In this document: one piece after another, positions 12,505-17,314 of the stretch | How positions within the stretch are numbered: position 1 is the stretch's first letter | Layout of the letters: every line of letters begins with the position of its first letter | Assembly: GCA_040877865.1 (NCBI GenBank) | Contig: JBBDND010000126.1 | Coordinates: forward strand, 1 to 25,871 | DNA: 25,871 nt | Direction of reading: 5' to 3' | DNA from: Bacteriovoracaceae bacterium | GTDB taxonomy: Bacteria > Bdellovibrionota > Bacteriovoracia > Bacteriovoracales > Bacteriovoracaceae | The notes under the pieces: model-generated | Told to the model about the DNA's origin: nothing | The model's database searches: none | Seen by the model: the letters and a program-made list of their open reading frames with translations, nothing else | Made by a program: the position numbers and the translations under genes

Positions 12505-13101
12505 TTAGTATCCCGGCTGGACAATTGTTAATTTCTTATCCTGGTTCATGTTTATTATGCTTCTATCACCATCAGCTTCTTTGCCTCCCATAATGACTCC
12601 TTCTGCCGACAGTATAAAAGTTTGGGAGTCTCCATCTGATTGAGTCCCTAAGGCAGAGGTTTGCAGCCCCGAATCCACGACTGTGGCCCCCACACCTTTG
12701 CCAGCGGCAAACCAAGTGTCTCCATCGGCGGTCGCCAAAGTACGCGAACAACTATCTGAAAACAGGCCGGAACTCTCGGCGCTTTCATATGCCGTCGCGT
12801 TTATAGCCGCGGCTTGATCAATGCCAATCGCATAATATCTTGAATCCGCTTGAGTGGAAGGGTCATACCCCATGTAGGTAAAGCAGTTGTGATAAATCCC
12901 AAAATCCCCATAAAACGCCTGTTCGGCGGTGTACGCAGCCGCTAACTGCACCTTGGCTTCGGAACTTTTAGCCTTGGCCTGATAGGTTTTAAAGTTTGGA
13001 ACAGCGACAGCAGAGAGAACTCCAATAATCGCGACAACAATCATAAGCTCTACCAGCGTAAAGCCTAACTGATTGCTCAGTCTAGTGTTAAATCTTTTCA
13101 T
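12505..13101 (-). CDS. pilA: Type IVa major pilin
   Basis: 13-aa leader ending G|[24 protein letters not shown] with Glu5; strong SD (AAGGAG); follows pilC and has its own terminator. Confidence 0.95.
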
Positions 13102-13116
13102 TTTCTACTCCTTTCC

Positions 13117-13171
13117 CTTAAACATTGAGAGTTTAAGCTTTTAACCGAAGACTACATTGAGAGCAGTCTTC
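13117..13171 (-). promoter_or_regulatory. Twin stem-loops with identical 7-nt loop (UCUCAAU) in the pilA leader
   Basis: Minus strand GAAGACTGC-TCTCAAT-GTAGTCTTC (13171-13147) and CTTAAAC-TCTCAAT-GTTTAAG (13137-13117), immediately before the SD. Confidence 0.75.
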
Positions 13172-13264
13172 TAATATTAATATTTTAATCTAGTTCAATA
13201 ATTATTCGGCTAAAGTATTAATTAAGTTAAAAGTTTTTTTGCTTTCCTTTGTAAAACCAAACAC

Positions 13265-14494
13265 TTAGCCTCCCGCTCCGCCGGCCGACATAAAGATTGG
13301 CAGATACATGGCGATCAAAACCGTGCCAATCATGCCGCCTAAGCCAACTAAAATTGCCGGTTCTATCAGTTTGGTCATATTTTCAATCAGCTCTTCCGTT
13401 TCTTGCTCAAAAACATCCGCCACTTTGATAAGCATCTCGTCCAGGTTGCCGGTGGATTCTCCAACTTTCACCATTTGATTCACCAAAGGCGGAAAGTAGC
13501 GAATTCGTCCCAGGGGCTCGGTGATAGACTTCCCTTTCATAACCGCTTCTCTGACGCCTCGGATGTCTTTTTGGATTTGGGTGTTGTCTATGGTTTCGAT
13601 GCACACATCCAACGCCTCCAAAAGATCCACCCCGGCGCTAAGCATAGTGGCTAAGGTTCTGGTGAACCCGGAGAGATTGCCTTTAATTATAATTCCTCCA
13701 AACACCGGCGTTTTCATGGTGAAGCGGTCCCATTTTATTTTGCCTTCTTTGGTTTTAATAAAATTGACGAATAAAAAGCCGCCCACCGCAAAGGCCGGCA
13801 ACATTAAAAGCGTGTATTCTTGGAAGAAGTCGGAAGTGTCGATAACAAATTGAGTTACTCCTGGAATTTCCTGCCCGGAATCTTCCAACATGCCTACAAA
13901 TTGTGGAACAACAAACACCATCAGCCCCCACGTGACCGCCAGTCCAATCACCAAAACAATGATGGGATAGGTCATGGCGCCTTTTATCTTTTTCTTTATG
14001 GCCTCTTGTTTTTCCATGAATTCGCTAAGCTTGTTTAGAATGGTGTCCAAGATCCCCGCGGACTCTCCCGCTTTCACTAGCGAACAATAAAGTTTGTCAA
14101 AGCCTTTTTGAGCGGACATGCCCTCATGCAAAGATTTCCCCCCGCCCACGTCTTCCATCACTTTTTTGATGGCGACTTTTAAGGAAGGATTTTTTTCCTG
14201 CTTTGCTAAAATTTCCATGCACTCCAAGATGGGAACGCCGGCGTTTATGAGAATGGAGAGCTGTTTGGTGAAGCGGTTCAGCTCCAGTTTGCCAAAAGGC
14301 TTAACAAAGCCTTTTTCAACCATGAGCATGCCAAGGTCAATATCCAACGGACTGGGAGCGACGACTTTTTTGGTCCGCACGCCTTGGCGACGCAACAAGC
14401 GCTTAACGTGCCTGACGTCTTTGCCATCGATCTCGCCTTGGACCTTTTTGCCCTCGGCGTTTACTCCTTCGTATTTAAACTTTCCTTGCGCCAT
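13265..14494 (-). CDS. pilC: Type IV pilus inner-membrane platform protein PilC
   Basis: T2SSF family: FTKQLSILINAGVPI, AGESAGILD, KIKGAMTYP, FTRTLATMLSAGV, VGESTGNLD, MYLPIF. Confidence 0.97.
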   Translation of the reverse strand: MAQGKFKYEGVNAEGKKVQGEIDGKDVRHVKRLLRRQGVRTKKVVAPSPLDIDLGMLMVEKGFVKPFGKLELNRFTKQLSILINAGVPILECMEILAKQEKNPSLKVAIKKVMEDVGGGKSLHEGMSAQKGFDKLYCSLVKAGESAGILDTILNKLSEFMEKQEAIKKKIKGAMTYPIIVLVIGLAVTWGLMVFVVPQFVGMLEDSGQEIPGVTQFVIDTSDFFQEYTLLMLPAFAVGGFLFVNFIKTKEGKIKWDRFTMKTPVFGGIIIKGNLSGFTRTLATMLSAGVDLLEALDVCIETIDNTQIQKDIRGVREAVMKGKSITEPLGRIRYFPPLVNQMVKVGESTGNLDEMLIKVADVFEQETEELIENMTKLIEPAILVGLGGMIGTVLIAMYLPIFMSAGGAGG

Positions 14495-14503
14495 TAGTTA
14501 TTC

Positions 14504-15619
14504 CTACTTTTTTTCAATTCCCAGCATCTTGGCCATCTCTTCCGGGTTATTTGAATAAGACATGGCGGCCTCAGAGTCAATAAGTCCTTTGTCCAACGCC
14601 CGCTTGATGCTTTGATTCATAGTGACCATATGGCTTTTTTCCTGATTGATCTGCATCTGAGAATAAACCTGATGCAGTTTATCCTCTCTGACCAAGTTTC
14701 TGATGGCGGGAGTCATTCTTAAAATTTCTTGAGTCAAAACCCTGCCGCCACCTTTTTTGGGAAGCAGCTGCTGCGCCACCACTCCTTGCAAGACAAAAGA
14801 CAAAAGCGTTCTAATTTGTTCCTGACGATCCGCCGGAAAAACATTGATTACTCTTGAGATGGTTTGAATGGTGGAGTTGGTGTGAAGCGTTCCAAAAACC
14901 AAGTGTCCCGTTTCGGCGATTTCCAAAGCCGCTTCGATCGTTTCCATGTCTCTCAGCTCCCCCACTAGCACGATGTCGGGGTCTTGGCGCAAAAGACTTT
15001 TTAGCCCGTTTTTAAACTTTAAGGTGTCCACCCCAATCTCTCTTTGATTCACAATGCTGGATTTATGAGAGTGAACAAATTCAATGGGATCTTCCAGTGT
15101 TATAATATGCCCCGGCTCATTGGTGTTTAGCCGATCGATGATGGACGCCAAGGTGGTTGATTTGCCCGATCCAGTGGGTCCGGTGACCAAAATAAGGCCG
15201 TTGGAGACGTCTGTCATATCGAGCAAAACTTTGGGCAAACCCAATGATTCGAAATCCGGCACTTGCGTGGGAATTTGCCTAAACACGGCCGCGACTCCGC
15301 CTTTTGCATAAAAACAATTGGCCCTAAATCTGGCCAGGCCTTTGACGCCAAAAGAAAAATCAAGCTCCAAGTTTTTCTCAAGCTCCGAGCGCTGAGCTTC
15401 GGTCAATATTTGATACACCAATCTTTTTGTGTCGTCGGAAGTGAGCGGCCCGGTTTTCACTCTGACGATGTCGCCGGATATGCGCATGCCCGGGGAAGTT
15501 CCCACCGTTATATGCAAGTCTGAAGCGCCGTTGTCCACCATGACCTTAAAGAGTTGCTGTATTTGCAGATTTTGAGCTCCACCGGCCGCTTGTGTTTTAG
15601 TTCTTGTAGCATCACTCAT
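14504..15619 (-). CDS. pilT: Pilus retraction ATPase PilT
   Basis: ASDLHI, Walker A GPTGSGKST, EDPIE, LRQDPDIVLVGE, GTLHT and the AIRNLVRE motif. Confidence 0.97.
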   Translation of the reverse strand: MSDATRTKTQAAGGAQNLQIQQLFKVMVDNGASDLHITVGTSPGMRISGDIVRVKTGPLTSDDTKRLVYQILTEAQRSELEKNLELDFSFGVKGLARFRANCFYAKGGVAAVFRQIPTQVPDFESLGLPKVLLDMTDVSNGLILVTGPTGSGKSTTLASIIDRLNTNEPGHIITLEDPIEFVHSHKSSIVNQREIGVDTLKFKNGLKSLLRQDPDIVLVGELRDMETIEAALEIAETGHLVFGTLHTNSTIQTISRVINVFPADRQEQIRTLLSFVLQGVVAQQLLPKKGGGRVLTQEILRMTPAIRNLVREDKLHQVYSQMQINQEKSHMVTMNQSIKRALDKGLIDSEAAMSYSNNPEEMAKMLGIEKK

Positions 15620-15643: not shown

Positions 15644-17314
15644 CTACAAATTGTCGGCGGCTGAATTGGACAAAGCCTCTTCCAAAGTGGTCAAACCTTG
15701 GGCGACTTTGGTCAGCGCCGACATTCTTAAAGTTTTCATGCCTTCTTTAATGGCGGTGGCTTTTATATCGTCGGAAGAGGCGTTTTTTAAAACCAACTCC
15801 CTTAACCTGGGACTCATCTCCAACACTTCATAAATGGCGAGTCTTCCTCTATACCCCGTGTTATTGCACGCTTCGCAGCCCTTGCCGTGATAGACCTTTA
15901 TTTTTTCCGCCGAAGCCGGCGCAAAACCGCACGCCACCAGCTCGGCCTTTGAAACATTGTGAATTTGCCTGCAGTTAATGCAAATTTTTCTGCACAGCCT
16001 TTGGGCCACCACCACATTCAAGGCCGCGACCACTAAAAATGGCTCAATGCCCATGTTTAACAATCTAGTGACTGTGGAGGGCGCGTCGTTGGTGTGCAAA
16101 GTGGACAAGACCATGTGCCCGGTCAAAGCCGCTTCCACCGCGATCTCTCCCACTTCAAAATCTCTGATCTCCCCAACCATTATAATATCCGGGTCTTGTC
16201 TCAGAAAAGCTTTGAGCACCGAGGCGAATGTCAGTCCCACGTCTTTTTTCACATTGACCTGGTTAATGCCTTCCAAGTTAAATTCGCAAGGATCCTCGGC
16301 AGTGGAGATATTGGTGTTTTCTTTATTCAACTCAGCCATGGCGGAGTAGAGCGTGGTGGTCTTCCCCGATCCAGTCGGGCCGGTGACCAAAACCATGCCG
16401 TAAGGGTTGTAAATTCCCCTTTGAAAAACATCAATTTGTTTTTGTTCAAACCCAAGCTTGGTCATGTCTAGCTGCAAATTTGATTGATCCAAAAGCCGCA
16501 ACACCACTTTTTCCCCAAAAAGGGTGGGCAAAGACGACACTCGGTAATCGATGGGTTTGCCGCCAATGGACAACTTTATCCTGCCGTCCTGGGGCTTTCG
16601 TTTTTCAGAGATGTCAAGCGAGGCCATAATTTTCAAACGGGAAATAATGGGCAACATCATGGATTTGGGAGGCCTGCCGACTTCCACCAAGGAACCGTCA
16701 AGACGAAATCTTACTCTAAAAATTTTTTCATACGGCTCGACATGTATGTCCGAGACCCCTTTAATAAAAGCGTCCGCCAAAATTCTGTTAACGTAGGTCA
16801 CGGTGTCTTGTCCGATATCTTCGGCTTTGACCTCTTGCTCGTTCTCGCTGTTGGACTTTATTTCGGTGACAGTGTGGATTAAGTCCTCAACGGAGTCTTC
16901 AACGCTGGCGTACAATTTTCTCCAGGAAGAAAGATTGGTTAAAATAAACTCTGTCGGCTTTTTTAATTCTTGTCCAAGTTTGGCCTTTGCCGCGACAACA
17001 GTGGGATCAAAAGTCGCCACTGTAACCTTGGCGCTGGTGACTTGGATGGGTATGGCCCGGTAGCTAATAACAAATTTTTTCTTTAAAGACTTAATCGTCT
17101 CTTTTGCCACCTTGGCGTTTTTTAAATCAATAAAAGTCAGGCCGTATTTTTCAGAGATAATTTTAGCGAATTTATTTTCGTCAAAGGAAGGCAAGCTCAA
17201 AAGCTCCAGCTCAGTCACCTCATCCTCGTCTTTGTTCATCATAAGCCGGCGCAACTCTTTCAGAGTCGCCATGCCAGTATTAGTTATGACATCAATAAAT
17301 TCCTTGCGGACCAT
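15644..17314 (-). CDS. pilB: Pilus extension ATPase PilB
   Basis: SDIHVEP, PQDGRI, Walker A GPTGSGKTTT, LRQDPDIIMVGE, tetracysteine Zn site (CINC...CEAC), GYRGR. Confidence 0.97.
   Translation of the reverse strand: MVRKEFIDVITNTGMATLKELRRLMMNKDEDEVTELELLSLPSFDENKFAKIISEKYGLTFIDLKNAKVAKETIKSLKKKFVISYRAIPIQVTSAKVTVATFDPTVVAAKAKLGQELKKPTEFILTNLSSWRKLYASVEDSVEDLIHTVTEIKSNSENEQEVKAEDIGQDTVTYVNRILADAFIKGVSDIHVEPYEKIFRVRFRLDGSLVEVGRPPKSMMLPIISRLKIMASLDISEKRKPQDGRIKLSIGGKPIDYRVSSLPTLFGEKVVLRLLDQSNLQLDMTKLGFEQKQIDVFQRGIYNPYGMVLVTGPTGSGKTTTLYSAMAELNKENTNISTAEDPCEFNLEGINQVNVKKDVGLTFASVLKAFLRQDPDIIMVGEIRDFEVGEIAVEAALTGHMVLSTLHTNDAPSTVTRLLNMGIEPFLVVAALNVVVAQRLCRKICINCRQIHNVSKAELVACGFAPASAEKIKVYHGKGCEACNNTGYRGRLAIYEVLEMSPRLRELVLKNASSDDIKATAIKEGMKTLRMSALTKVAQGLTTLEEALSNSAADNL

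Follow-up and report, generated by a model that had tools for sequence, protein, structure and literature searches.

The operator of the Escherichia coli thrS gene contains two similar stem-loops, one of them adjacent to the ribosome-binding site (RBS), which a dimeric protein binds with its two halves, in competition with the 30S subunit. The hag leader of Bacillus subtilis, part of the FliW-CsrA-Hag system, carries two hairpin-borne loop motifs, one 5'-proximal and the other at the Shine-Dalgarno (SD) sequence, and dimeric CsrA bound to them couples synthesis to assembly. The guanidine-II element (mini-ykkC, RF01068) consists of two small hairpins with identical conserved loops located directly upstream of the SD (PMC5558903). 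Here we describe a pair of hairpins in front of pilA, the gene for the major type IVa pilin, in a member of Bacteriovoracaceae (phylum Bdellovibrionota; GenBank assembly GCA_040877865.1). The window, that is, the whole stretch of DNA analysed, comprises 25,871 nt of contig JBBDND010000126.1, and both hairpins, which display the same heptaloop, are housed on its minus strand in the 163-nt spacer between pilC and pilA. Judging from comparative sequence analysis, the twin hairpins are a newly described, putative cis-regulatory RNA of the pilA mRNA leader, which is conserved, dedicated to pilA and specific to Bacteriovoracaceae.

Read on the minus strand, the locus contains what the original prediction had claimed, namely, two hairpins with identical loops upstream of the pilA RBS, the first with a 9-bp stem including a single G-U pair (G13164 with U13154) and the second with a 7-bp stem, separated by a linker of 9 nt. 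The stems of the two hairpins are unrelated, and their common top is C-UCUCAAU-G. Both the minimum free energy fold and the centroid fold of the 176-nt intergenic RNA contain hairpins 1 and 2. The second hairpin is directly adjoined by GGAAAGGAG (13116-13108), and its end lies 3 nt from AAGGAG and 16 nt from the pilin ATG (13101-13099, minus strand), with 22 nt between the end of its loop and the ATG. The 10-mer CTCTCAATGT is present at 13122-13131 and 13154-13163, 32 bp apart. This direct repeat had also been pointed out in the original prediction and is real, whereas the meaning attached to its spacing, about three helical turns, does not hold, because the distance from loop to loop varies between 29 and 78 nt among the leaders. 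In the own genome (an assembly of 1.68 Mb, 78% complete, with 44% G+C), the 9-mer CTCTCAATG has 13 copies, compared with about 13 expected by chance, and hairpins are formed only at the two pilA copies. Folding energy and word counts of a single genome are uninformative, and the case for more than chance therefore rests on relatives. The comparative evidence suggests strongly that the twin hairpins exceed chance.

Orthologues of pilA were found in all 22 family genomes that were sampled evenly, and when leaders were picked with PilA protein homology alone, the motif was present in 18 of these 22 genomes, in one of them as a variant with an 8-nt loop. Overall, the same twin-hairpin layout was identified in more than 45 species. 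The intergenic DNA of the window matches close relatives only. Homologous leaders keep both the loop and the pairing. For example, relative G002 has retained both hairpins on different stems, both loops being UCUUAAU, and relative G005 displays UCUCAAU loops on stems AAAGGGUC/GGCCUUUU and CUGAAC/GUUCAG. Neither the length nor the sequence of the linker is conserved among relatives. A search of 237 family genomes for two copies of CTCTYAATG located 15-45 nt apart gave 33 matches, compared with 3 for the reversed control; in 17 of the 33 cases, a pilin with the sequence GFTLVELM(I/V)VVAIIG is encoded immediately downstream, and the others are in coding sequence and stemless. As an ascertainment-free control, we used 55 family loci, many of which were located by protein homology only. 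In the 127 nt preceding pilA, the loop word TCT[ACT]AA[CT] has a density of 15.2 per kb, 21 times that in the rest of these loci (0.71 per kb). Moreover, at least five of the six flanking pairs are formed around 91 of the 106 leader copies of the word, as against 16 of the 239 background copies.

Most leaders have two hairpins, and some have one or three. In nearly all leaders, 17-30 nt separate the end of the last loop from the ATG. To judge by the sequences of the leaders, the copy number of the hairpin module is flexible. In genus g4 (L116/G008 1370-1392; L110, L113, L115, L081) a third motif hairpin is found about 110-120 nt upstream of the ATG. Up to four hairpins are present in G014 (L122): two have loops that fit the loop word (UCUCAAC, and UCUUAAU on a proximal 4-bp stem adjoining the SD), a third has the loop UUUCAAU, and a UCUUAAC hairpin is located about 139 nt upstream of the ATG. 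G197 (L087, L105; G197:C8:70434-71465) encodes two tandem major-pilin paralogues with the motif before both, the leader of the first having two motif hairpins and that of the second a single one, which adjoins its SD.

The loop consensus was drawn from 88 distinct leader hairpins of more than 45 species. Within the heptaloop U-C-U-H-A-A-Y, positions U1, C2, U3, A5 and A6 are invariant in all 88 hairpins, position 7 is U or, rarely, C, and position 4 is never G (U 69, C 21 and A 9 among the 99 loops tallied). The stems range from 5 to 11 bp and are often prolonged through internal loops. The pair closing the loop may be C-G, U-A, A-U or G-C; thus, all four Watson-Crick types occur, and the C-G closing pair, which had been regarded as part of the conserved core, does not belong to it.

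The covariation set consisted of 44 hairpins from 22 leaders (the first and the second hairpin of each), aligned without gaps and anchored on the loop; selection was by the loop word or by pilC homology, and the pairing filter applied was weak. At the eight loop-proximal pairs, 87.2% of the cells are paired, compared with 51.7% +/- 2.1 after shuffling (none of the 500 shuffles reach the observed value) and with 34-47% when the register is shifted by one to three columns (six shifted registers). All eight pairs have changes on both sides, and the covariation score is 0.919 versus 0.237. RNAalifold, applied to 11 complete leaders with no structure supplied, returned exactly two hairpins, with compensatory changes at 11 of the 13 pairs. 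The earlier proposal that divergent stems around a conserved loop reflect selection on RNA structure is well supported by the five invariant positions out of seven in the loop, the covariation of all stem positions and the unguided RNAalifold result. In addition, the stems contain 29 G-U pairs versus 10 A-C mismatches, and from this excess it follows that the folded strand is the pilA-sense RNA, and not its complement or duplex DNA.

Position 4 of the loop is often identical within one leader, namely, C,C in the window, G005, G244 and G141, C,C,C in G122 and A,A,A in G123. Concordant non-U pairs at this position number 12, compared with 3.1 +/- 1.5 under shuffling, and the agreement persists where sister species differ (CCC versus AAA in genus g4; in genus g1, CC in the window and G005 versus UU in G001-G003). 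Co-evolution with a reader is a possible explanation of this concordance, and relatedness and base-composition drift could contribute. Other single leaders are mixed at position 4: A,C,U in G008, C,A,C in G121 and A,U,C in G124.

As far as sampled, the element appears to be restricted to one gene and to one family. A covariance model of the single hairpin (R1) retrieved hairpin 2 as the top match in the own genome (28.7 bits, E = 0.0016), with hairpin 1 at 21.6 bits; all remaining matches are inside open reading frames (ORFs), the two leader hairpins being the only non-coding ones. The genome-wide search for stem, loop and stem that had been suggested at the outset led to the same two places: among the 1514 loop words of the own genome, nine have six of six pairs, and all but the two pilA sites are in coding sequence. 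Of the 22 new best matches obtained from 151 family genomes, about 17 are upstream of pilin genes, and about five look like chance, as expected at the E-value cut-off. A broader model (R2), applied to five complete relatives with a cut-off of E <= 1, gave seven matches, six of them in pilA leaders and the seventh within an ORF of 505 aa. The gene downstream of the motif in the leaders examined always encodes a type IV major pilin. The occurrence in pilA leaders only, in the own genome as well as in the five complete relatives, rules out a dispersed palindromic repeat, whether of the repetitive extragenic palindromic type or resembling a miniature inverted-repeat transposable element. Outside the family, 125 genomes from elsewhere in the phylum gave two R1 matches at E < 0.01, no more than expected by chance. 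Seven pilA leaders that represent five further families of Bdellovibrionota (f13, f14, f18, f21 and f24) lack the motif, and in three more families the gene after pilC encodes a different pseudopilin and has no motif.

The original prediction recognised no known element, and this agrees with Rfam 15, which has no match at the gathering threshold in the window. Sub-threshold matches, considered at E <= 10 for the window and at E <= 1 for the loci of eight relatives, are at chance level, and none accounts for the hairpins. Full-text literature searches found no description of such a leader motif. The earlier remark that the loop is not the GGA motif of CsrA extends to all 88 leader hairpins, none of whose loops has a G; the sole GGA is that in the SD itself, and a leader bound by CsrA/RsmA was rejected on these grounds.

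The features of the locus are collected in Table 1. At a wider scale, the pilus cluster also holds pilMNOP, a prepilin peptidase and an ABC pair. To our knowledge, nothing has been reported on post-transcriptional control of pilin in Bdellovibrio-like predators. Type IV pili are required by such predators for prey invasion, as described, for example, in PMC4237445 and PMC3818213. A conserved box of approximately TAAGTGnTTGAaatTAC starts at or just after the pilC stop codon (13245-13267 of the window, minus strand). Similar boxes are present in many family members, at the same position in L013, L018, L023, L026, L034, L036 and others, about 100-130 nt upstream of the first hairpin; the box might be bound by a regulator or belong to another promoter.

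Table 1. Coordinates of the twin hairpins and of the surrounding pilus genes and signals in the window, in the order in which they are met on the minus strand
Feature	Position	Strand	Description
pilB	15644-17314	minus	Upstream of pilT, same strand
pilT	14504-15619	minus	Upstream of pilC, same strand
pilC	13265-14494	minus	T2SSF-type platform protein; Pfam T2SSF, E = 3.8e-66
Predicted promoter region	13182-13230	minus	TTAAC (13230-13226), N16, CCGAAT (13209-13204), N16, TAAAAT (13187-13182)
Hairpin 1	13171-13147	minus	GAAGACUGC (13171-13163) / loop UCUCAAU (13162-13156) / GUAGUCUUC (13155-13147)
Linker	13146-13138	minus	GGUUAAAAG, 9 nt, unpaired
Hairpin 2	13137-13117	minus	CUUAAAC (13137-13131) / loop UCUCAAU (13130-13124) / GUUUAAG (13123-13117)
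Shine-Dalgarno sequence	13108-13113	minus	AAGGAG, unpaired in predicted folds
pilA	12505-13101	minus	Major type IVa pilin, 198 aa; N-terminal methylation motif; Pfam N_methyl, E = 3.4e-8

The type of the predicted promoter is ambiguous, because its boxes may be read either as sigma-70-like -35 and -10 elements (CCGAAT/TAAAAT) or as a FliA-like box. The sequence TTAAC-N16-CCGAAT of the window resembles the consensus of FliA-type attack-phase promoters of Bdellovibrio, TTAAG-N16-CCGATA (PMC3627812). Relatives have (C)CGAnA, a spacer of N16-18 and TA(T/A)AAT ahead of the first hairpin. In 26 of 45 leaders, the distance from the end of the -10-like hexamer to the base of this hairpin is 4-9 nt, the mode being 6; in the window, TAAAAT ends 10 nt before the base of hairpin 1 at 13171, and about 4 nt separate this hairpin from the predicted transcription start upstream of it. 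Every candidate promoter, or read-through from pilC, would place both hairpins in the mRNA. A transcript start downstream of the hairpins, considered in the original prediction, is not expected, all plausible promoters being predicted upstream of hairpin 1. For relative G008, a wastewater run labelled 'METAGENOMIC RNA-Seq' contains one unbroken 151-nt piece that covers three hairpins, the SD and the ATG, and read-length pieces fall on L116 1353-2094, corresponding to the leader and the pilA coding region. The 151-nt piece gives a weak hint at co-transcription, the RNA nature of the libraries being a guess. A single record (run X2, record 4; L116 1380-1440) holds a 151-nt piece that switches strand, with minus 1380-1440 joined to plus 1429-1518, and is probably a snap-back library artefact at structured RNA.

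As to function, the reading that we prefer, and to which we would give an even chance of being correct, is that the hairpins are a tandem operator for an oligomeric RNA-binding protein controlling pilin translation or mRNA stability. Stems of arbitrary sequence would then be scaffolds that display the heptaloop, and each of the identical loops would be a docking site for the same dedicated factor acting in trans, for which an RNA-binding protein bound as a dimer or oligomer is the best candidate. When occupied, the hairpin beside the RBS would set translation initiation and the 5'-terminal hairpin would affect mRNA decay; together, the two may tune pilin output separately from that of pilBTC. 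Because position 4 differs within one leader (G008, G121), a single complementary RNA cannot read all loops. Furthermore, no conserved complement of the loop was found within the pilA mRNA, only sporadic matches, and this, in combination with the mixed position 4, favours recognition by a protein. Candidates for such a reader may be sought among small single-domain RRM_1 proteins (about 90-170 aa), which are present in one to six copies in all 104 family genomes searched (e.g. G000:C252:195-407); in control genomes the family was detected in 2 of 14 (Synechococcus and Bacteroides). A pilin homeostasis circuit, in which an RRM-type protein or a small ligand acting on the UCUHAAY loops would couple pilA translation to the assembly state or to the switch between attack and growth phases, is a tentative and, in our view, unlikely extension; the concordance at position 4 would in this case reflect co-evolution with the reader.

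Several observations speak against a tandem operator. The z-score of whole-leader folding is -1.47 and not significant. In four of the 22 family genomes (L106/G163, L112/G021, L118/G161 and L129/G156), the leader of pilA is short and lacks motif hairpins, and, given these natural cases of loss, the element appears to be dispensable. Leaders with one or three hairpins make a strict dimer model too simple. Small RRM proteins are also encoded in motif-free genomes, so that they have no phyletic support as the reader. Finally, the motif is small, and a heptaloop kept for its own fold, with the U-turn signature C-U-N-A, could act free of any partner.

This last point is developed in the explanation that comes next in plausibility, although we still consider it improbable. 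The hairpins may be a factor-independent stabiliser or insulator, the 5' hairpin shielding the mRNA from 5'-end-dependent decay and the SD-side hairpin keeping the RBS from pairing upstream, with the heptaloop, a fold of the U-turn type, kept for special stability or nuclease resistance. 5'-terminal hairpins that protect mRNA are well established, e.g. in ompA. The start of the first hairpin a few nt from the predicted transcription start in most leaders, the unpaired SD in predicted folds and the suitability of a long-lived mRNA for an abundant structural pilin all fit such a role. However, stabilisation leaves unexplained why five loop bases are invariant in 88 hairpins with free stems, why all hairpins of one leader have the same loop, and why this loop is absent from all other leaders in the searched genomes. 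In addition, generic stabilisers usually bear diverse hairpins, often with tetraloops.

RNA partners deserve consideration in view of the same signature. In the antisense systems hok/sok, CopA/CopT and ColE1 RNA I/II, YUNR U-turn loops of 6-7 nt are borne by short hairpins, sometimes in tandem. The YUNR motif, reportedly defined by Franch and colleagues in 1999, is matched by C2-U3-N4-A5 in all 88 loops, so that the pilA-leader loops share the signature as C-U-N-A and might fold as a U-turn in three dimensions. The loops might therefore be recognition loops for a trans-encoded small RNA (sRNA) or a cis-antisense RNA, with fast kissing via the U-turn, and the concordance at position 4 within leaders could stem from a co-evolving partner. 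Nevertheless, we judge this explanation to be quite unlikely. One complement cannot match all loops of the mixed leaders G008, G124 and G121, and a contact of 7 nt would need extension into the stems, which are unconserved. A cis-antisense RNA would solve the stem problem, but a conserved antisense promoter was not seen, and the bias of G-U over A-C favours the sense strand only. The partner RNA of YUNR systems is fully complementary, whereas none was detected for the pilA leader: models searching both strands found no mirror-image hairpin elsewhere in the own genome or in the five complete relatives, a search that is blind to a single-stranded 7-nt site in an sRNA.

It is very unlikely that the element is a tandem-hairpin ligand sensor working in the manner of guanidine-II, in which the loops would bind a small molecule or ion, associate with each other and alter access to the SD. 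The identical loops, free stems, variable linker and position just 5' of the SD are what one would expect from such a sensor, but the loops read UCUHAAY and not ACGR, Rfam gives no match, and self-complementarity of the loop is not conserved (UUAA is palindromic, the C and A variants are not). The existence of one- and three-hairpin leaders is also at odds with it, and a structural pilin gene would be an unusual target for a metabolite switch. The least probable explanation, to which we give hardly any credence, is a site acting at the DNA level, either the 10-bp direct repeat as a tandem operator or TTGAGA as a -35-like box of an antisense promoter, with the hairpins being incidental: although the repeats follow closely on the predicted promoter, a place suited to a repressor, and the loop complement TTGAGA resembles a -35 hexamer, which the promoter scan pairs with a weak plus-strand -10, such a site leaves the compensatory changes in the arms and the excess of G-U over A-C unexplained, the spacing of the repeats among leaders has no helical periodicity, and the -35 resemblance is lost in the commoner variants TTAAGA and TTTAGA.

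Other readings were rejected. The hairpins are not a Rho-independent terminator of pilC, since no U tract follows them (hairpin 1 is followed by GGUUAAAAG and hairpin 2 by GGAAAGGAG) and the terminator scan calls neither. An upstream ORF or a start codon in the loop was dismissed because the AAUG of the window is lost in UCUUAAC loops and with U-A or A-U closing pairs, and the frame is not conserved. Kissing between the loops of hairpins 1 and 2 would be open to the palindromic UUAA, but not to the UCAA and UAAA variants, and mixed leaders occur. As an anti-SD, the loop would form three or four weak CUCU-GGAG pairs, leaving the invariant A5 and A6 unexplained. Mimicry of an anticodon loop or T-loop fails because the covariation register puts C at the place of U33.

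A compact orphan RNA motif with strong covariation, a single obvious target gene and a family-level distribution is unusually tractable, and the pilA leader would extend by one family the so far short list of tandem-hairpin regulators with loop-only conservation. If a bacterial RRM protein or a small ligand proved to be the partner, the finding would be of interest far outside the field of predatory bacteria. Among described systems, guanidine-II is the closest known architecture, the likeness being one of architecture only: identical loops, free stems, a variable linker and a position adjacent to the SD. Its loop is an ACGR tetraloop with C-G closing and loop-loop pairing, whereas the pilA leader has a UCUHAAY heptaloop on any closing pair, and its target genes encode guanidine carboxylase and SugE rather than a pilin. 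Membership in this class is thus ruled out by the loop sequence, the Rfam covariance model and the gene context. In logic, the pilA leader comes closest to two systems, namely, the operator of thrS and the CsrA-bound leader of flagellin. The thrS loops, however, mimic the anticodon loop of tRNA-Thr, which the pilA-leader loop does not fit in its covariation register, and they are bound by the product of the gene itself, whereas a membrane pilin is unlikely to be an RNA binder. CsrA recognises a GGA loop motif and is a global regulator with many targets, in contrast to the motif described here, which is found at pilA only; the proposed homeostasis circuit would share its logic with FliW-CsrA-flagellin, using unrelated parts. 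An RRM-read loop of 7 nt on an arbitrary helix is known from the U1A sites, namely, hairpin II of U1 small nuclear RNA and the paired sites in the 3' untranslated region of the U1A mRNA, where neighbouring copies, occupied by two protein molecules, serve autoregulation. The U1A sites are eukaryotic and have a different loop, AUUGCAC, and any binding of the pilA leader by the bacterial RRM proteins is hypothetical.

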